64,000 nucleotides of DNA, from positions 54,158 through 118,157 of the forward strand of contig JAKIUN010000002.1 in NCBI GenBank assembly GCA_021647505.1, written 5' to 3'. The position numbers were made by a program, and so were the translations under genes. This document shows positions 4,479 through 61,228 of this stretch, piece by piece (position 1 is the stretch's first letter; each line of letters opens with the position of its first letter). Under the pieces are notes generated by a model. The model had not been told where the DNA came from. It worked only from the letters and a program-made list of their open reading frames with translations, and made no database searches. Source of the DNA: Gammaproteobacteria bacterium (lineage in GTDB: Bacteria; Pseudomonadota; Gammaproteobacteria; SZUA-152).

Positions 4479-4721
4479 GATGTTCTCGGCTCTGGCAATA
4501 AAAAATGGGAACAAAAAACAGCCTACGGATGTTAGCGGCAACCCTACCCACGGCACAAGCCAGCCACTCACACAGCTCAACAACCACCTGCTAACGCGGG
4601 AGGTCAGCCTGGGTGAGCAGGCTTTCCATGCCCACGAGAAATGTGAATCAACCGCGTGAGCACACAAAACGAGCCCATCACCCTACCAGCGAGAGTTTTG
4701 CAAGAGGCTCGCGGGGCTAAT

Positions 4722-4781: not shown

Positions 4782-7508
4782 TCAGCCAAGCTTGCCGTGA
4801 CATTGCTTGTATTTCTTGCCGGAACCACAGGGGCAGGGTTCGTTGCGCCCCACTTTCCGGCCTTCACGTACGAAAGGCCGGTGCTCAGGCTCTGTACCTG
4901 CCTGTGCTTTTTCGGGTGCAGCACCGGCGGTAGCCGACGGAACCTGCTCGTGCTGATAAGAAACGGGCGCCTCGGAACGCCGCTGTGCCTCCATCGCCTC
5001 GACGTCCTCTTCGGCACGAATCTGCACCTTGGAAAGAATCTCCACCACCTCGCGCTTGAAGCGTTCCAGCATGGCGCCAAACAGCTCAAAGGCCTCGCGC
5101 TTATACTCCTGTTTGGGGTTTTTCTGCGCATAACCACGCAAGTGAATACCCTGACGCAGATGATCCATAGTGGCCAGATGATCCTTCCACTGCTCGTCCA
5201 GCACCTTGAGCAACACGGCCTTTTCGAAGTGACGCAAGACCTCTTTGCCGGCCTGCGCCTCCTTCTCGTAATAGGCCTGCTCCAGTTCATCAAAAATACG
5301 CTGGCGCAGAGTCTCTTCGTGCAGGTCGTGGTCTTCATCCAGCCATTGCTGCACCGGCATGGCCATGCCGAAGCTGGCCTCCAGCGTCTTTTCCAGTCCG
5401 GGTACGTCCCACAGTTCGTCCAGTGAACCCGGCGGAATGTATTCGCTGATCAGATCACCGACCACATCGACGCGGATGTTCTTCACCATCTCCGACACGT
5501 CGCTGGTGGACATCAGTTCCGCGCGTTGCTCGTAGACTACCTTGCGTTGATCATTGGCAACATCGTCGTATTCCAGCAGATTTTTGCGGATATCAAAGTT
5601 ATGGCCTTCTACTTTACGTTGGGCATTTTCGATCGCCTTATTGACCCACGGATGTTCGATGGCCTCGCCGTTTTGCATACCCATCTTCTGCATCAGGGCG
5701 GCGACGCGCTCGGAGGCAAAAATACGCATCAGGTTGTCTTCCAGCGACAGGTAAAAACGGGTCGATCCCGGATCACCCTGGCGGCCAGAACGGCCACGCA
5801 GCTGATTATCGACGCGGCGTGACTCGTGGCGTTCGGTACCCGTCACATGCAGGCCACCCGCCTCCAGCACCTCCCCATGACGCTGCTTCCACGCCTGCCG
5901 GAGCCTCCCCTCCTCCGCCTCATCGAGATCACCGGCGGCCGCCAGCTCGGCATCCAGGTTGCCGCCAAGGACGATATCGGTACCGCGACCGGCCATGTTA
6001 GTGGCAATGGTCACCGAACCGGGCGCACCGGCCTGGGCGATAATCTCCGCCTCCTTTCCGTGGAATTTGGCATTCAGTACCTTATGCGGCACCTCGGCCT
6101 TATCCAGCAACTCAGAGAGATATTCCGAGGTCTCGATAGAGGCGGTACCCACTAACACTGGCTGCTGACGCTCACGGCACTCCTTCACGTCCTCGCAAAT
6201 AGCATCGAATTTCTCTTTACTGGTGAGGAACACCAAGTCAGTGAAATCCTTGCGTGCCACCGGTTTGGAGGGAGGAATGACCACCACTTCCAGGCTGTAG
6301 ATCTGCTGAAACTCGAAGGCTTCAGTATCGGCGGTACCGGTCATGCCGGCCAGCTTGTCGTAGAGACGGAAGTAATTCTGGAAGGTGATTGAGGCCAGGG
6401 TCTGATTCTCGTTCTGCACCGTCACGCCTTCCTTGGCTTCCACGGCTTGATGCAGACCGTCGGACCAGCGCCGCCCCGGCATGGTGCGGCCAGTAAATTC
6501 GTCGACGATGACAACATCATCCTCCTTGACGATATAGTCCACGTTACGTTGATACAGGGCGTGGGCACGCAGCGCGGCATTGACGTGATGAATCAGGCGG
6601 ATGTTGGCCGCATCATAGAGACTTTCGCCCTCCGGTAGCAGACCGATCTCGGCCAGCATCTCCTCCACATGCTGGTGGCCCTGCTCGGTGAGATAGACTT
6701 GTTTGGATTTTTCTTCCAGATAAAAATCGCCCAGCGGGCTATCTTCAGGCTCTTCGCCTTCCTGTCTCTCCAGTTTGGGTACAATCTCATTGATCTTCTC
6801 ATAGAGATCAGAGCTGTCGTCAGCGGGGCCGGAGATGATCAGCGGCGTACGCGCCTCGTCGATGAGGATGGAGTCAACTTCGTCGACAATGGCGTAGTGC
6901 AACTCACGCTGAACCTTATCCTCGAGGCTAAAGGCCATATTGTCACGCAGGTAATCGAAGCCGAATTCATTGTTAGTGCCGTAGGTGATATCAGCGGCAT
7001 AGGCGGCACGCTTTTCGTCCGGACTCTGCCCGGAAAGCGCCACACCCACCGACAGACCGAGAAAGTTATACAGTTTGCCCATCCAGGCGGCGTCGCGACT
7101 GGCGAGATAGTCATTCACCGTCACCAGATGTACGCCCTTGCCAGTGAGTGCATTGAGGTACACCGCCAACGTACCCACCAGGGTCTTGCCCTCACCGGTG
7201 CGCATTTCGGCGATTTTGCCATCGTTGAGCACCATGCCACCGATGAGCTGAACATCGAAGTGGCGCATGTCCAGGGCGCGTTTTCCGGCTTCACGCACCA
7301 CGGCAAAGGCCTCGACCAGCAAGTCGTTGACCTTGGTGCCGTCGGCCAGACGCTGACGGAATTCATCCGTCTTGGCGCGCAGTTCCTCATCGGACAGTTT
7401 CTGAATCTCTGGCTCCAGGGCACTGATTTGAGCCACGACCTTATTCATCTGTTTCAGCAGACGATCGTTTCGACTACCAAAAACCTTGGACAGCAATTTA
7501 CTTACCAT
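4782..7508 (-). CDS. secA: preprotein translocase ATPase SecA
   Basis: 908 aa from [16 protein letters not shown]; DEAD motor motifs; C-terminal zinc finger ([14 protein letters not shown]). Confidence 0.95.
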
Positions 7509-14588: not shown

Positions 14589-14703
14589 AGACCAAACCCC
14601 GGCGTTGAAATGCAAAGGACGCAGAGGTACTGAGGACGCAGAGAAATACGGGAATGGGTCGCAGCCATCCGTAAAAGGTTTCGTGCAATATTCAAACCCA
14701 TCA

Positions 14704-15603: not shown

Positions 15604-15781
15604 GCGGGTGCTCCGGCTTGGTTCCGCAATTCAACATCATGGCCACAGAGGCACAGGGCACACAGAGAAAAACCAAAATGGATTGGCGACATTTCCAATG
15701 CTTGCGGTTGATGTACGGCCAGTCCCAATAAACTCCGTGACCTCTGTGCCTCTGTGGCCCCCGTCTTGAAGCATCGAACCA

Positions 15782-28617: not shown

Positions 28618-28988
28618 AAAGGAAGCCGGCCTGTAAGCCGGGTTCTGTCGAGAACAGCCATTCATCTGGGCGCCACGTCACCGCGACGCTCGTGCGACCT
28701 ACCCGGGAGCAACGCGGGCCACGCCAATGCTCCCCTATTTGGTCTTGCTCCGGGTGGGGTTTACCCTGCCACCGCTGTTACCAGCGACGCGGTGCGCTCT
28801 TACCACACCTTTTCACCCTTACCTGTGCACCGGTGTGAACACCGGGCCATCGGCGGTCTGTTTTCTGCGGCACTTTCCGTAGGCTCTCGCCTCCCAGGTG
28901 TTACCTGGCACCCTGCCCTTTGGAGCCCGGACTTTCCTCCACATGTCTTGCAGGCAAGACACACAGCGACTGTCCAGCCGACTTCCGC
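28618..28988 (-). ncRNA. rnpB: RNase P RNA (bacterial type A)
   Basis: Reverse complement contains the universal RNase P RNA blocks GGAGGAAAGTCCGGGCTCCA...AGGGCAGGGTGCCAGGTAAC...GGTAAGGGTGAAA.GGTG.GGTAAGAGCGCACC...GGTAAAC.CCACCCGGAGCAAG.CCAAATAGG...ACAGAACCCGGCTTA; the P1 stem pairs GGAAGTCGGCTGG with CAGGCCGGCTTCC; T-run after the 3' end. Confidence 0.85.
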
Positions 28989-29682: not shown

Positions 29683-29725
29683 GGTAGGGTGGGCAGGCTT
29701 TTCATGCCCACGTGAAATATGCGCC
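29683..29725. repeat. half-copy (one hairpin unit, 42/43 identical) of the REP/MITE-like repeat family
   Basis: ggtagggtgggcaggcttttcatgcccacgtgaaatatgcgcc is the reverse complement of the second half of the full elements at 55947-56128 and 60040-60211. Confidence 0.7.
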
Positions 29726-29730
29726 TAGCT

Positions 29731-29797
29731 CAGCGGCAGGAATAAGGGGCGCGTATTTTTGCGAGCGCAAAAATCGTGACGCTTATTCCTGCCGCTG
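29731..29797 (-). terminator. long perfect hairpin (16-bp stem cagcggcaggaataag / cttattcctgccgctg, nested inner palindrome) 3' of the parE-like operon
   Basis: Perfect 16-bp inverted repeat with 35-nt loop itself partly palindromic; sits 10 bp downstream of the toxin stop on the minus strand; no obvious U-tract. Confidence 0.35.
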
Positions 29798-31019: not shown

Positions 31020-31066
31020 GGAGATTGAGCCTGGGTGGCAAACTTTTAATGCCCACGCGAAATACG
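31020..31066. repeat. degenerate copy of one hairpin unit of the REP/MITE-like repeat family
   Basis: cctgggtggcaaacttttaatgcccacgcgaaatacgagcc resembles gtagggtgggcacgttttttgtgcccacgcggttggcgc. Confidence 0.3.
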
Positions 31067-36286: not shown

Positions 36287-36368
36287 TGCCACAGAGGCAC
36301 GGAGAACACGGAGAACACAGAAAAATAATTGATTTATTTTTCTCCGGGCCCTCCGTGCCTCCGTGGCA
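36287..36368. repeat. 19-bp inverted repeat (ttgccacagaggcacggag / ctccgtgcctccgtggcaa) with 44-nt AT-rich loop between the two permease genes
   Basis: Near-perfect long-range inverted repeat (one mismatch: cagagg versus cctccg arm) in the 270-bp gap; contains direct repeat cacggagaacacggagaacac. Confidence 0.4.
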
Positions 36369-41753: not shown

Positions 41754-41756
41754 CAA

Positions 41757-41810
41757 GGATTCAGCATTGAAAAGGATTCAGCATTGAAAAGGATTCAGCA
41801 TTGAAAAAGA
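41757..41810. repeat. 3 tandem 18-bp repeats (ggattcagcattgaaaag)
   Basis: Read directly; 50 bp upstream of bcsG ATG. Confidence 0.9.
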
Positions 41811-55279: not shown

Positions 55280-55933
55280 TCAGAACGCAAAGGAACCGGG
55301 GTTAAAGTAGTGACGGCCGCTGCGCACCTCGCCCAGACGCTCCACCAGACGTTGATAGTCACCCGTGTTGTTGACCAGGTCAATTTCAGCGGCATTGACG
55401 ATCAGCAGCGGGCTATCACTGTAGTAATGGAAAAAGCGCGTGTAGGCCTCTACCAGACGTTGCAGATAGTTGCTCTCAATGAAACGCTCGAAGGCACGGC
55501 CGCGCTTTTGCACCCGATCCAGCAATACTTCCACTGGCGCCTGCAGATAGATCACCAGATCCGGGCTAGGGACGTCGAGGGTGAGGCTGGCATAGACCTG
55601 TTCATAGAGACGCAGCTCATCGTCGTCCAGATTCAGCTGTGCGAACAGACGATCCTTTTCGAGCAGAAAGTCGGCTACGCGCACGGGGGCGAAAAGGTCA
55701 TTCTGACGCAACGCCTGCATCTGCCGGGTACGCTGAAAGAGGAAGAATAACTGTGTCGGCAAGGCCGCATGGCGCGGGTTCTTGTAGAAGCGTTCGAGGA
55801 AGGGGTTTTCCTCCGCCCCCTCCAGCAGCAGCTCGCCTTCATAATCCTCGGCGAGACGCCGGGCGAGGCTGGTCTTGCCCACCCCGATGGGACCTTCGAT
55901 GACGATATGATGAGGAATGTCTGCGGTATTCAT
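55280..55933 (-). CDS. deoxynucleoside kinase family protein
   Basis: P-loop IVIEGPIGVGKTSLARRLAE and dNK-family body; sits between folK and panB as in several pseudomonads. Confidence 0.75.
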   Translation of the reverse strand: MNTADIPHHIVIEGPIGVGKTSLARRLAEDYEGELLLEGAEENPFLERFYKNPRHAALPTQLFFLFQRTRQMQALRQNDLFAPVRVADFLLEKDRLFAQLNLDDDELRLYEQVYASLTLDVPSPDLVIYLQAPVEVLLDRVQKRGRAFERFIESNYLQRLVEAYTRFFHYYSDSPLLIVNAAEIDLVNNTGDYQRLVERLGEVRSGRHYFNPGSFAF

Positions 55934-55946
55934 GGTATGTAAATCC

Positions 55947-56128
55947 GGATCAGGGCACTTCTGTTAATCGCTCGCGGCCTCTGGCTCGCAGCCATGTAGG
56001 GTGGGCACGTTTTTTGTGCCCACGCGGTTGGCGCATATTCCACGTGGGCATGAAAAGCCTGCCCACCCTACCAGGTTTTTTGTGGGGAGCCGTCAGGATC
56101 AGGGTACGTCTGTCAATCGCTCGCGGCC
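55947..56128. repeat. full copy of REP/MITE-like double-hairpin element bracketed by 33-bp direct repeats
   Basis: Core catgtagggtgggcacgttttttgtgcccacgcggttggcgcatattccacgtgggcatgaaaagcctgcccaccctaccaggttttttgtggggagccgtcag flanked by ggatcagggcacttctgttaatcgctcgcggcc (55947-55979) and ggatcagggtacgtctgtcaatcgctcgcggcc (56096-56128). Confidence 0.8.
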
Positions 56129-56210
56129 CGTAGCCCCGATGGGCGTTGTTTGTCAGGTTGCACAGAGGACGCGACACCACGATTGATCGACGTGCCTTAC
56201 TTAGCCAGTA

Positions 56211-56714
56211 TTAATCAGCTCGTATCCGACTGGTTTTTTCGATAACGAGCAGCGACCCGCGCTCGCATCGGGCCAACAGCTCGCCCAGCACACCAAGGCC
56301 GGGAATGACCAGCCCGGGTGCTATCTCGGCCAGAGGATACAGGACGAAGTTGCGTTCATACAGCCCCGGGTGGGGCACCGTCAACGTGGGCAGGTCGATG
56401 GTCTGATCGGCATACAGCAGCAGGTCGAGATCCAGTGTACGTGGCCCCCAGCGTTCACCGCGCACACGCTGGTGGGCAGCCTCCACGGCCTGTAATCCGG
56501 CCAGCAGGGCCAATGGTGACAGCGCCGTTTCCAGCGCCGCCACGGCATTGAGGTAATCAGGCTGATCCTGCGATCCCATGGGCGCGCTGCGATACAGGGA
56601 GGACTGTGCCAGCAGTTGGCTTTGCGGCAGCTGCGCCAATTCGGCGAAGGCACGCCGCAGCCGGGCCTGCGGATCAGCCAGATTACTGCCGAGGCCGATG
56701 TACGCCGTCACCAT
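56211..56714 (-). CDS. folK: 2-amino-4-hydroxy-6-hydroxymethyldihydropteridine diphosphokinase
   Basis: HPPK signature (AYIGLGSNL, RWGPRTLDLDLL). Confidence 0.9.
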   Translation of the reverse strand: MVTAYIGLGSNLADPQARLRRAFAELAQLPQSQLLAQSSLYRSAPMGSQDQPDYLNAVAALETALSPLALLAGLQAVEAAHQRVRGERWGPRTLDLDLLLYADQTIDLPTLTVPHPGLYERNFVLYPLAEIAPGLVIPGLGVLGELLARCERGSLLVIEKTSRIRAD

Positions 56715-58173: not shown

Positions 58174-58248
58174 GCTCCCTTCGTCTAGTGGTTAGGACAC
58201 TGGCCTCTCACGCCGGTAACAGGGGTTCGAATCCCCTAGGGAGCGCCA
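58174..58248 (+). tRNA. tRNA-Glu (anticodon CUC)
   Basis: Cloverleaf folds perfectly: acceptor stem GCTCCCT/AGGGAGC, anticodon loop CT-CTC-AC, T-arm GGGGTTCGAATCCCC, CCA end; body nearly identical to tRNA-Glu of E. coli except anticodon CTC instead of TTC. Confidence 0.85.
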
Positions 58249-58681: not shown

Positions 58682-59938
58682 TCAGGGCTCGAAGCGAATC
58701 ACGTCGCCAGGCGCCAGGCGGGCAATGTCCTCGGCCAACTCTCCCACCGAGAACAGACGTTGTACCTGCGTCACAATCAAGTTCGTGGCCGGATTTTCCG
58801 CATAGCCCAGCGCGCGCTGGCCCGGGTAATCCTTTACCGGCACTTCGCTGAGCTTGTAGGTATTCAGCACGTCACCCACACGGATGTCGGCCAATCCACC
58901 GGCATCGAAATAGACCTTGTTGCCTTCGGCGCGGATCACTCGTGCAGTAAAGGGCTGTGAACCGACATCACTGACGATCAGTGCCACCATTCTGTCCAAC
59001 ATCTGATCCACTTCCCGGCCGAAAGGCGAAGCGAAGAATTTTTCACTCATCATCACAGTATTAGCGGGATGCAATACCGTCAAAAAACGCTCTTCCACCG
59101 TTTCACTGACCCTGTGCCGTGCCACCAAGGCTCCAGAAATACCGTCATGAATAAACAAGTCCAGTTCCAAATGACGCATTTTGGTGCCGAGAAAATGATT
59201 GCTCACACTCATGTCGCGAATCACCCCTGTGATGACGAACTGCACACCCAGGGATTCGGCGAACTCCGAAGCCACCTGATGCGGCTCACGCGCCGGCGGC
59301 AGAGCACCGAGAATGCGCCGCTGGGAAATGACGCCCTCTTCGCTCAGCGGCAGTAAGTATTGACTGGCGTTCACTGTCAGCACTCGGCCATCACTGATCA
59401 GGCGTCGTTCCAGTTCGCGCGCCAGTTCCGTTTCGATCTTCGGCAGGTCGTGAATCTGGGTTCGGTCGAGAACGTGGAACTGGCTCACGGCGACCTTGCG
59501 GCGGTAACGATTTGCCGCTTCGGCATTGCCATTCGCGTACCGGCTGGCCTGTCCGGTATCGCCAGCGCCACCCGGCTCCGCCTTCATTAGCGCCTGTAGC
59601 AGCGCATCATCTGGCACCTGGGCACGAATCTTCACATAATAATGATCTTCATCCGCCCATTCGCGGAGAATCACCACATGGGTCACGCGCCCCTGTGCGG
59701 AAAAACGCATATTGTCCGCCACCACACCGTTACGGGTCGTCACCGTGGTGATGGAGATGCGTGCATTGGCCTGCATCAGTGCCTGGCGAATAGCATCCTG
59801 CAGGGCCATACGCTTGGCCTGCGCCGTCGAGTCGCCGATGCGCGCCGCGCCCTCGGCCTCTACGGTCTGCGCCTGTGCCAGTCCGCCCGGCAGCGGCACA
59901 ATCAGCAATAACAGCAGGATTTTTAACAGCTTGGACAC
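58682..59938 (-). CDS. flgT: FlgT-like protein (flagellar H-ring assembly protein T family)
   Basis: Signal peptide; N-terminal domain resembles Vibrio FlgT (VEAEGAARIGDSTAQAKRMALQDAIRQALMQA vs YEATGQAVI.GD...AR..A.QDALRQAS.QA); adjacent to motY; GTG start. Confidence 0.5.
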   Translation of the reverse strand: MSKLLKILLLLLIVPLPGGLAQAQTVEAEGAARIGDSTAQAKRMALQDAIRQALMQANARISITTVTTRNGVVADNMRFSAQGRVTHVVILREWADEDHYYVKIRAQVPDDALLQALMKAEPGGAGDTGQASRYANGNAEAANRYRRKVAVSQFHVLDRTQIHDLPKIETELARELERRLISDGRVLTVNASQYLLPLSEEGVISQRRILGALPPAREPHQVASEFAESLGVQFVITGVIRDMSVSNHFLGTKMRHLELDLFIHDGISGALVARHRVSETVEERFLTVLHPANTVMMSEKFFASPFGREVDQMLDRMVALIVSDVGSQPFTARVIRAEGNKVYFDAGGLADIRVGDVLNTYKLSEVPVKDYPGQRALGYAENPATNLIVTQVQRLFSVGELAEDIARLAPGDVIRFEP

Positions 59939-60039
59939 AACATTCCCTCCATCGCCACCCGGGTGGCGCTCACGTCACACCCACAGCGGCAAACATCCCA
60001 ACATTCTTGAAGTCTGACGGCTTCTTAAAAAGTCTCTAA

Positions 60040-60211
60040 TTTTGTGGGGAGTCGTCAGCCACAGGCGCCATAACACGTTAAAGCCATGTAGGGTGGGCAC
60101 GTTTTTTGTGCCCACGCGGTTGGCACATATTCCACGTGGGCATGAAAAGCCTGCCCACCCTGCCAGGTTTTTGTGGGGAGCCGTCAGCCACAGGCGCCAT
60201 AACACGTTAAA
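60040..60211. repeat. full copy of REP/MITE-like double-hairpin element bracketed by 43-bp direct repeats
   Basis: ttttgtggggagtcgtcagccacaggcgccataacacgttaaag (60040-60083) + core (98% identical to the 55993-56095 copy) + tttgtggggagccgtcagccacaggcgccataacacgttaaag (60169-60211). Confidence 0.8.
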
Positions 60212-60244
60212 GAATGCAGATCCCGTGCCGACATTTTCTGCATC

Positions 60245-61228
60245 ATGGCGTACAGATGCAGCACAGCCGCCTGTCGGTGCAAAAAAGCGGCCCTCGGCCT
60301 GGTACTGCTGCTGTTATGCCCCCCACCCCTGCTGGCCAACACCCAGCATTTCCAGGCACCGCTCAATGCGGTGAAATGGGAGCCCTCCGCGAGACAAAAG
60401 TCCTCAGCTGGGCAAGAGCCCTCAGCGAGACAGGAGCCCCCCACAGAAAACCTGTACTGCAGCCTCAGCCACGACATCCCCCTTTACGGACGCGCCACCT
60501 TTGCCAAATCCGCAGGCCATGAACTGGGTTTCCGTATGACGACGAAATGGAATATCGGACTCAATGCCAAGCGCGCCCGGCTGCGCGCCATGCCGCCGGA
60601 ATGGCGCCCGCAGGCGACGGGCCAAAACCTGGGAGATATTCGCATACAGCCAGGCAATACACCCTTCCGGCTGGATGAATCCCTGACACGGCGGCTGTTG
60701 ATGGCATTGCAAAACGGCATGGAGGTCTCTTTCACCTACCCTGTCGAGCTTGATGGGCAGGATCACATCAAGGTCTCTTTGCCGGGGGTCAGTTTTCGTC
60801 CGGCGATGGATGTATTTGCTTCCTGCCTGAGCCGGTTGCCGGTATACGACTTTGCCGATTTCAGCGATACCGTGGTGCACTTTGCCGCCGGCACCGATGG
60901 ACTCAGTCCCAAAATCCACAAGCAACTGGATGCTATTGCCAAATACCTGGCCACTGACCCGACAGTGAAAAAAATCATCATCGAGGGCCACACGGATGAC
61001 ATCGGCCAATACCGCGCCAACGATAAGCTGGGACAGCGTCGCAGCTCAGCAATTCGCGACTACCTGTTAGCTATGGGTGTACCAACCGGCAAATTCGAGC
61101 TGCGCTCCTTGGGTGAACGCAGGCCCATCTATACCAACACCACGGATGAAGGCCGAGCCCGTAACCGGCGGGCCCGTATCACCCTAGAACGCAGCAGTGA
61201 CGAGGCAATGCACGTCCACAGTCACTGA
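60245..61228 (+). CDS. motY: sodium-type flagellar motor T-ring protein MotY (OmpA-like C-terminal domain)
   Basis: N-terminal domain matches MotY (F.APL...W...S...CSLSHDIPLYGRATF vs Vibrio Y.ASLDQSHW.L..S.LECTLRHDIPGYG.A.F); C-terminal OmpA/PG-binding motif (IEGHTDDIG..AND.LGQRRS.A…R..NRRA). Confidence 0.65.
   Translation: MAYRCSTAACRCKKAALGLVLLLLCPPPLLANTQHFQAPLNAVKWEPSARQKSSAGQEPSARQEPPTENLYCSLSHDIPLYGRATFAKSAGHELGFRMTTKWNIGLNAKRARLRAMPPEWRPQATGQNLGDIRIQPGNTPFRLDESLTRRLLMALQNGMEVSFTYPVELDGQDHIKVSLPGVSFRPAMDVFASCLSRLPVYDFADFSDTVVHFAAGTDGLSPKIHKQLDAIAKYLATDPTVKKIIIEGHTDDIGQYRANDKLGQRRSSAIRDYLLAMGVPTGKFELRSLGERRPIYTNTTDEGRARNRRARITLERSSDEAMHVHSH

Follow-up and report, generated by a model that had tools for sequence, protein, structure and literature searches.

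Two copies of a short non-coding element lie in a 64,000-nucleotide stretch of DNA from a gammaproteobacterium (assembly GCA_021647505.1, contig JAKIUN010000002.1; hereafter, the window), one in the spacer between the deoxynucleoside kinase gene dNK and folK (locus 1) and the other in the spacer between flgT and motY (locus 2), and each is bracketed by long direct repeats. Each copy is the right-hand part of an IS10-related MITE (miniature inverted-repeat transposable element), which carries a pair of inverted repetitive extragenic palindromes (REPs), or REPIN, and which has kept a single terminal inverted repeat (TIR). Intact copies of the transposon make 9-bp duplications, so that the long repeats look like marks of later rearrangement, and we consider it moderately probable that they are scars of a local, microhomology-mediated event that followed insertion, and not a transposition footprint. 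This removes the tempting inference of a bacterial mobile element with target duplications of about 30 bp, which had been put forward in the first-pass annotation of this DNA and would have been categorically new.

Anatomy of the two loci

The 33-bp direct duplication that had been described around the core at locus 1 is indeed present, its second copy (56096-56128) differing from the first (55947-55979) by three mismatches, and at least two matches to it were obtained in none of 100 dinucleotide-preserving shuffles. Equally confirmed were the position of the core between dNK and folK, its 98% identity to the other copy (55990-56080, 91 nt, compared with 60082-60172; 97% over 107 nt if the adjacent TIR is included), and the different flanking repeat. 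On closer reading, the duplication at locus 1 comprises about 40 nt rather than 33, as the left copy resumes past a 7-nt filler; its period is 149 nt and the inserted segment measures 116 nt. Read in the orientation of the MITE, the locus consists of GTAAATCC, the left 33-mer GGATCAGGGC ACTTCTGTTAATCGCTCGCGGCC, TCTGGCT, CGCAGCC, ATGTAGGG...REPIN...CCAGG and the right-hand TIR (TIR_R), followed by the right 33-mer GGATCAGGGT ACGTCTGTCAATCGCTCGCGGCC, then CGTAGCC, then CCGATGG. The left-hand TIR (TIR_L) and the internal segment have been replaced by a second, approximately 40-nt copy of the host DNA situated to the right of the element. At the new joint, host ...GCAGCC and element AAAGCC-ATGTAGGG have AGCC in common, a 4-nt microhomology located at the REPIN hairpin's outer edge.

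The same architecture is seen at locus 2, where a host segment (X) and an older TIR copy are duplicated around REPIN plus TIR_R in the order ctctaa-(TIR'-X)-CCATG-REPIN-CCAGG-(TIR_R-X)-aatgcag. The two copies of this 44-mer, which differs in sequence from the 33-mer of locus 1, show one mismatch and a period of 129 nt, with an inserted segment of 85-129 nt. Here, the new joint is formed between host ...GTTAAAG, at the end of X, and element ...CAAAG (then CCATG), which have AAAG in common. The segments at both loci are small and non-coding, containing only spurious open reading frames (ORFs) of 61-76 aa, and a promoter and terminator scan of locus 1 revealed no signal that could be ascribed to the element. 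Tandem Repeats Finder left the 129- and 149-nt periods unreported, the window copies amounting to only 1.2-1.3 units. Coordinates of all parts are collected in Table 1, in which sequences used for comparison carry handles beginning with L.

A repeat-insert-repeat arrangement would also result from att-type site-specific integration of a small circle via a shared 33-44-nt segment, in which case the flanking repeats would correspond to attL and attR. We regard this origin as extremely improbable, given that the repeats are host sequence and are wholly different between the two loci, that no integrase is found near either locus in the window, that the insert lacks coding capacity, and that a circle could have obtained the host segment only from the same locus.

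Table 1. Coordinates of the element copies, their flanks and neighbouring genes, and further REP-related sequences in the window
Feature	Position	Strand	Basis and remarks
dNK (deoxynucleoside kinase)	55280-55933	minus	ORF; the L001 product, identical to this one, matches Pfam PF01712; downstream of the insertion
folK (HPPK)	56211-56714	minus	ORF and PF01288; upstream gene
Locus 1, left (extra) copy, native 33-mer GGATCAGGGCACTTCTGTTAATCGCTCGCGGCC	55947-55979	plus	Starts with the 9-bp IS target GATCAGGGC
Locus 1, filler TCTGGCT, 7 nt	55980-55986	plus	Missing in the right copy and in orthologues
Locus 1, CGCAGCC, end of duplicated host flank	55987-55993	plus	Counterpart CGTAGCC at 56129-56135
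Locus 1, REPIN core	55994-56075	plus	Inverted repeat and long-hairpin centroid fold
Locus 1, TIR_R TTTTTGTGGGGAGCCGTCAG of IS4-family MITE	56077-56096	plus	Sole TIR remaining at locus 1
Locus 1, right (original) host-flank copy	56096-56135	plus	9-bp target GATCAGGGT at 56097-56105, remaining 33-mer, CGTAGCC
Native folK-dNK spacer	56136-56210	plus	Common to L125, L252 and L004; absent from L007, L003 and L127
Locus 2, left 44-mer copy	60040-60083	plus	Older TIR copy TTTTGTGGGGAGTCGTCAG at 60040-60058 and host segment X CCACAGGCGCCATAACACGTTAAAG at 60059-60083
Locus 2, REPIN core, CCATG...CCAGGT	60084-60168	plus	96-98% identical to the locus-1 core
Locus 2, right 44-mer copy	60169-60212	plus	TIR_R at 60169-60187 and X at 60188-60212
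Locus 2, possible degenerate other end of an old MITE, CTGACGGCT and tcttaaaaagtctctaa	60013-60039	plus	Uncertain: partly aligns with native L128 sequence
Solo half-REPIN (one REP and spacer)	29683-29750	plus	79-82% complementary to both full cores
Diverged REPIN-like relic, CCTGGGTGAGCAGGCTTTCCATGCCCACG ... GAGCCCATCACCCTACC	4608-4690	plus	Repeat family shared with 31029-31057
Diverged single-REP relic	31029-31057	plus	Repeat family shared with 4608-4690

The core is a REPIN

Within the locus-1 core, REP1, GTAGGGTGGGCAC-T6-GTGCCCAC (55996-56023), is separated by a 20-nt spacer from the inverted REP2, GTGGGCATGAAAAGCCTGCCCACCCTAC (56044-56071). The inverted mate in each core reads GTGGGCAT-GAAAAGCC-TGCCCACCCTAC, and the same arrangement of REP and mate is found at locus 2 from 60088 onward. 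The inverted repeat at locus 1 has 32-nt arms, 84% complementary and 12 nt apart, and the centroid fold of the core is one long hairpin; for the wider region, z-scores were -2.7 and -3.9. REP doublets are built of GTAG and a palindrome, doubled in inverted order (PMC3116915), and since GTAG plus palindrome occurs here twice, inverted, and within one hairpin, the core is a REPIN made of two inverted GTAG-hairpin REPs. The pattern GTAGGGTGGGCA-N9-TGCCCACG was found in at least 117 stretches of GTDB species-representative genomes from many genera, the matches listed including Gallionella, Sideroxydans, Sedimenticola, Methylomonas, Nevskia and many gammaproteobacterial metagenome-assembled genomes; this REP family is widespread in beta- and gammaproteobacteria.

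A cognate REP-associated tyrosine transposase (RAYT) was found in L027, where a 179-aa ORF (5490-6029, minus strand) scores 195.8 bits with the NCBIfam model NF047646 (cut-off 80) and lies between matching REPs at 5453-5481 and 6058-6086, and its homologues (78% and 65% identity) adjoin the same REP in L046 and L115. The presence of a RAYT beside the same REP in all three sequences indicates that the core belongs to a genuine RAYT-type REP family. Altogether, the window contains two full REPIN copies and three partial or diverged ones. As in other REPIN/RAYT systems (Nunvar 2010; Bertels & Rainey 2011, PMC3116915), GTAG stands 5′ of a GC-rich palindrome, the pair is inverted and forms one hairpin, and the copies are extragenic and apparently multiple; unlike free REPINs, both full window copies are fused to a single TIR from a derivative of a DDE transposon.

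The transposon end and its source

Both cores are adjoined by TTTT(T)GTGGGGAGCCGTCAG, at 56077-56096 and 60169-60187, with a third, slightly different copy at 60040-60058. Scanning metagenomes with this TIR motif revealed inverted TIR pairs about 1.34 kb apart; many of the 120 matches to the 17-mer were due to chance (lacking TTTT), and only the full 19-mer was used. In L171, the TIR TTTTGTGGGGAGCCGTCAG forms both ends of a 1,344-bp element (1135-2478), the 422-aa product of which is an IS4-family transposase (Pfam DDE_Tnp_1, PF01609; NCBIfam NF033591, 351 bits) with about 38% identity to ISVsa5/IS10-like transposases. The same family of ~1.34-kb insertion sequences (IS) from environmental metagenomes is also represented in L174, L184, L198, L202, L208, L226, L237, L239 and L243, with CTGACGGCTCCCCACAAAAA as TIRs and transposases 36-78% identical to that of L171. 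Copies with paired TIRs are surrounded by 9-bp direct repeats, matching at nine of nine positions in L184, L206 and L218 and at eight of nine in L171, L208, L239 and L004, and the 62 distinct outside flanks yield the symmetric target consensus GSTCWGACC. IS10, with ends CTGATGAATCCCC, likewise duplicates 9 bp, and it undergoes precise excision between its 9-bp repeats, which is stimulated by the inverted ends. A RAYT adjoining the IS in L171 was also considered, but could not be linked to the REP family, there being no REP match in the L171 contig.

Short non-coding derivatives of this IS, measuring about 140-285 bp, have the same 20-bp TIRs, with the REPIN immediately inside the right one. 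The MITE in L218 is 285 bp long, is flanked by a perfect 9-bp duplication (ACTCAGTCC), and is laid out as TIR_L, ~160 bp, AAAG-CCATG-REPIN-CCAGG and TIR_R; derivatives of the 285-bp type are also found in L107 and L223. Since the REPIN-CCAGG-TIR_R junction recurs in L107, L218, L223, L247, L004, L125 and L252, it is element-borne, and each window core represents the right-hand portion of an IS10-like MITE that carries a REPIN. The MITE is non-autonomous and is derived from the 1.34-kb IS4-family (IS10-like) IS, and it inserts conventionally at 9-mers similar to GSTCWGACC with a 9-bp duplication. The window copies, with one TIR each and repeats of 33-44 nt in place of two TIRs and a 9-bp duplication, are therefore one-ended derivatives and not intact MITEs.

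In its DDE transposase (PF01609, NF033591), length of ~1.3 kb, TIRs of ~20 bp starting from CTGA, 9-bp duplication and symmetric 9-bp target, the parental element conforms to the IS10/IS4 family, and its short non-coding derivatives share TIRs and subterminal sequence with it, as do other IS-derived MITEs. It differs from IS10 in being a different IS, as judged by the limited identity of its protein to that of IS10-like ISVsa5, in having a MITE with REPIN cargo, and in the single TIR of the window copies. The composite itself, a REPIN carried as cargo by an IS10-like MITE, is a curiosity. A resemblance between the flanking repeats at cgctcgcggcc, which had been read as a hint at target preference, was not reproduced, as the 44-mer of locus 2 lacks that string; the actual preference is for the 9-mer GSTCWGACC at the TIR joint.

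Empty, complete and one-ended alleles in relatives

The window and most of the relatives compared with it are metagenome-assembled genomes. At locus 1, L125 (dNK 209/217) and L252/L253 (208/217) contain one 33-mer, no core and no TIR, and the single 33-mer directly abuts GGATTTAC...ATG(dNK) within a folK-dNK spacer of 118-142 bp, which is homologous to window positions 56136-56210. Comparison with such core-less orthologous spacers had been proposed together with the original observation, and it gave exactly one 33-mer, as predicted. Relatives without the core carry each flank once (L125 and L252 for locus 1, L004 for locus 2), indicating that the repeats are duplicated host DNA of the insertion locus and are not borne by the element, in agreement with the first-pass annotation.

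In L007, L003, L127-L130 and L254, the folK-dNK spacer measures merely 16-28 bp. The window, L004, L125 and L252 share about 115 bp of this spacer, the 33-mer among them, which L007 (dNK 213/217) and others lack. This distribution does not track dNK similarity and is suggestive of an earlier indel or recombination event; the long-spacer and short-spacer groups are also distinguished by the last ~5 codons of folK. Exact-protein look-ups with the folK and panB products of the window yielded no further strains.

The complete form of the locus-1 insertion is preserved in the sister strain L004 (dNK 216/217 identical), in which the 20-mer TIR occurs on both sides of the core in inverted orientation. 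L004, L005 and L006, representing three samples, have the complete two-TIR MITE at the same nucleotide, with only the 9-bp GATCAGGGC duplicated, and the layout in L004 is ...AGATCAGGGC, CTGACGG...TIR_L, 20 bp, REPIN, TIR_R, CATCAGGGC ACGTCTG.... The TIR-GATCAGGG joint of the window is identical to the L004 joint to the nucleotide. The MITE at locus 1 thus inserted in the conventional manner, and the window allele appears since to have lost a TIR and acquired a second copy of the host flank.

At locus 2, the core is missing from L004, which carries the 44-mer once between identical outer flanks, while L125 contains X-TIR-REPIN followed by ~125 bp of internal sequence (between a stretch similar to 60013-60039 and the core), L252 has X-TIR-REPIN joined straight to native sequence, and L127 and L128 contain no element. 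In all, at least five allelic states of the flgT-motY divergent promoter region (window 59938-60245) are distinguishable among L004, L125, L252, L127, L128 and the window: no element, full MITE, REPIN and TIR only, TIR only, and the duplicated form. Within this region, AAGAAGCCGTCAG (~60013-60030, other strand) was first read as a remnant of a right TIR, but it partly matches native L127/L128 sequence, and its assignment was left uncertain. At an unrelated third locus, L247 carries REPIN plus TIR_R without TIR_L between GCTCGGAACCG...GACACAG and GCTCGGAGCCGGACACAG, bracketed by a repeat of ~18 nt with a 29-nt interruption. One-ended derivatives without any long repeat are represented by L252 at locus 2 and by L146, in which 12 nt of the core are left. 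Breakpoints cluster at both edges of the hairpin formed by the REPIN and at the point where the missing TIR would have had its outer boundary. Sites without the element, complete insertions, derivatives reduced by deletion, and one-ended copies with a duplicated flank together make up the series of alleles at the two loci, which is useful for understanding how tandem REPIN-plus-flank arrays form, because its breakpoints are located at the hairpin edge and at microhomologies.

With genomes of this kind, strain variants could have been mis-joined through the repeat during assembly, and the TIR does coincide with breaks in related contigs, those of L005 and L006 starting 11 nt ahead of it. However, both window architectures are also found, with scattered single-nucleotide differences, in the independent assembly L001 (GCA_021648705.1), the periods of 129-149 nt are shorter than a read pair, and the joints X-CCATG and CGCAGCC-ATG need real reads. 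Moreover, structures of the kinds described below for L027 and L049 occur elsewhere, L049 being an isolate genome. We therefore view an assembly artefact as very improbable.

Origin of the long repeats

The notion of a mobile element that makes target duplications of about 30 bp is not supported by these comparisons. Complete IS and MITE copies give 9 bp, even at locus 1 itself (in L004), whereas the long repeats vary in length (40, 25 or 44, and ~18 nt in L247), one of them contains filler, and their joints lie at microhomologies on the REPIN edge. In two systems that do produce long target duplications, CRISPR repeat duplication by Cas1-Cas2 and casposon integration (14-15 bp), it is the integrase that sets the length, which does not vary between sites. 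The window structures resemble the products of these enzymes in having a unique insert between direct repeats of ~30-45 nt of pre-existing sequence, but differ from them in the variable length (~18-44 nt), in the filler, in the 9-bp duplication of the complete form, and in having no Cas1-like gene nearby. The varying length, the inexact copies and a left boundary that does not coincide with an element terminus all depart from an integrase-type long duplication. The practical warning is that a transposition footprint should not be concluded from the mere presence of long direct repeats on either side of a short repeat element.

Under the rearrangement that we favour, insertion of the MITE at GATCAGGGC, immediately upstream of dNK and with duplication of 9 bp (L004 still has the complete form), would have been followed by a microhomology-mediated event at the hairpin. 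This event may have proceeded along either of two routes, both composed of known steps. In the first, tandem duplication of the unit (REPIN-TIR_R-9 bp-flank) would be followed by precise excision of the complete upstream copy between its 9-bp repeats, leaving 9 bp-flank-REPIN-TIR_R-9 bp-flank, which would match the window structure at locus 1 exactly. At locus 2, the same duplication and a subsequent CTCTAA-TTTTGTGG deletion, also seen in L004, would produce the window allele, from which later loss of one 129-nt unit would give the L004 allele. In the second route, the transposase would cut at the left end, and aberrant synthesis-dependent (gap) repair with template switches would ensue. Either way, an immobile one-ended copy would be left between long direct repeats, and such a product, being no longer excisable, would be favoured to persist.

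Several observations weigh against this scenario. No intermediate allele with two complete tandem units was seen at either window locus, and searches of the window and of the few contigs examined from the species revealed no RAYT and no IS4 transposase. The direction from L004 to the window is suggested by parsimony (the shared TIR/target joint) and not by a rooted tree, and 4-nt microhomologies at just two joints provide weak statistics. Furthermore, three independent loci (two in the window and that in L247) retain the same half of the MITE, REPIN plus TIR_R, which could equally indicate a dedicated one-ended insertion process. Finally, the core at locus 2 is 96-98% identical to that of locus 1, versus 87-91% to the orthologous cores of L125 and L252, which fits re-acquisition from the paralogue better than a purely local duplication.

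The recurrent half-element might itself be mobile. Its TIR end could be joined by an IS4-type transposase, or a RAYT could nick at a CT beside the hairpin, in a one-ended or hybrid insertion with the other end resolved 25-45 nt away, and the long, variable duplications would then constitute the true footprint. Such an origin would agree with the single-copy flanks in core-less relatives at both loci, with the identical half kept between host repeats at both window loci and in L247, and with the fact that both novel joints follow a CT dinucleotide on the other strand (CATGGCT); Ton-Hoang et al. in 2012 reportedly observed cutting at such CT sites by the E. coli TnpA-REP. We nevertheless hold it to be unlikely. 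The TIR/target joint at locus 1 is at the same nucleotide as in the complete L004 MITE with its normal 9-bp duplication, so that the insertion is most simply explained as conventional, and all copies with paired TIRs have 9-bp duplications. In addition, repeat lengths are irregular, with filler in one of them, the one-ended copies in L252 (locus 2) and L146 lack a long repeat, and REPINs without any TIR show the same kind of flank duplication.

The local rearrangement has also to be weighed against an exchange between chromosomes, i.e. illegitimate, homology-facilitated recombination between element-bearing and element-free or core-less alleles of co-occurring strains, in which the sequence just past the REPIN would be joined to a point upstream of the insertion site and both flank copies would be kept. 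Element-bearing, core-less and empty alleles of both loci do exist side by side among very close relatives that come from similar samples, 3 of the 33 positions distinguish the two 33-mer copies while the cores are 98% alike, and the locus-2 core is nearer to its paralogue than to the orthologous cores. Similarly, the copies of the gene 3′ ends that are duplicated in L063 and L027 (described below) differ mainly at synonymous or conservative positions, as if they had been coding in separate lineages. On the other hand, the variants of the left copy (T at 55958 and 55964) occur in none of the sampled alleles, such an exchange does not in itself account for a crossover that invariably falls at the edge of the REPIN, and a single chromosome can give rise to the same product. 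We assign it a low probability, comparable to that of a mobile half-element.

Flank duplications at other REPs

Duplication of flanking DNA is found around members of this REP family that are not connected to a transposon end. In L063 (197-535), a REPIN and ~100 bp of a gene 3′ end form a 178-bp tandem repeat of 1.9 copies with 86% matches and no TIR; the gene is cheR-like, as judged by reading its translation and not by a family scan. The outer copy in L063 is a decaying pseudo-3′-end with a stop codon, and coding sequence and REP share CCCACCC, the microhomology in which the joint is situated. In L027 (5100-6100), ~125 bp of the sthA 3′ end together with the REP are duplicated around the REPIN with a period of 216 bp. 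The RAYT gene of L027 is located immediately downstream of sthA, the TAG stop codon of which is inside the GTAG of the REP, and the copies differ mostly at synonymous sites.

Direct repeats of at least 18 nt bracket 10 of 139 REP sites, eight of which are independent; among independent sites the count is 8/137, versus 7/695 for random control positions with the same geometry (Fisher p = 0.001). The 45-49-nt bracketing repeat in L049 (Methylomonas aurea) was rejected as a target duplication, as a third copy of the flank lies 1.1 kb away beside another REP, revealing a composite dispersed repeat. At least three copies of this ~80-bp sequence, which contains a pair of small hairpins (CTTTCTTTTGG/CCAAAAGAAAG; CCGGT-CCGCGA-ACCGG), occur within 1.3 kb alongside the same REP in L049 (4049-5364).

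Tandem REPIN clusters with units that include flanking sequence are known from P. fluorescens SBW25, which has 16 of them (Bertels & Rainey, PMC3116915, text and Fig. S7), and no mechanism had been proposed for their formation (PMC3337134). The window structure appears to be a short version of such clusters, and resembles those of Pseudomonas and E. coli: as in SBW25 and in the bacterial interspersed mosaic element (BIME) arrays of E. coli, the window seems to repeat a unit of flank and REPIN directly and almost identically, and full tandem examples from the same REP family are provided by L063 and L027. Unlike these clusters, the window has only 1.2-1.3 units, with one REPIN and two flanks, and its unit includes an IS TIR; unlike them as well, core-less and complete-element alleles at the same sites expose the breakpoints.

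REPIN hairpins may also play an active part and seed the duplication of neighbouring DNA, although we consider this rather doubtful. For instance, a RAYT nick at the CT flanking the hairpin, or stalled replication at this point, could serve to prime new copying of the adjacent 20-130 nt. If so, both window loci, L247, L063 and L027 would represent snapshots of one process, which would explain the tandem REPIN-plus-flank clusters and would weld REPINs to mobile elements and to gene 3′ ends.

Other features of the window

An Rfam scan of the window at gathering thresholds detected a class A RNase P RNA (28618-28985, minus strand, 330 bits) and one tRNA gene (58174-58245, plus strand) only, with no match at the element. 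Between the RNase P gene and the solo half-REPIN there are ~700 bp, and the latter is followed by a further hairpin, distinct from it, with 29-nt arms (29731-29797). Another short repeat family, GCCACAGAGGCACRGNGNACACRGAG, which is unrelated to the REP/TIR element, occurs singly at 14618-14661 and 36288-36331 and as an inverted pair at 15619-15781. Three nearly perfect tandem copies of the 17-nt unit AAGGATTCAGCATTGAA are located at 41755-41810. Finally, the panB-panC spacer, which measures ~2 bp in the window, is occupied in L252 (7461-7955) by ~490 bp of AT-rich DNA, representing an unrelated insertion.

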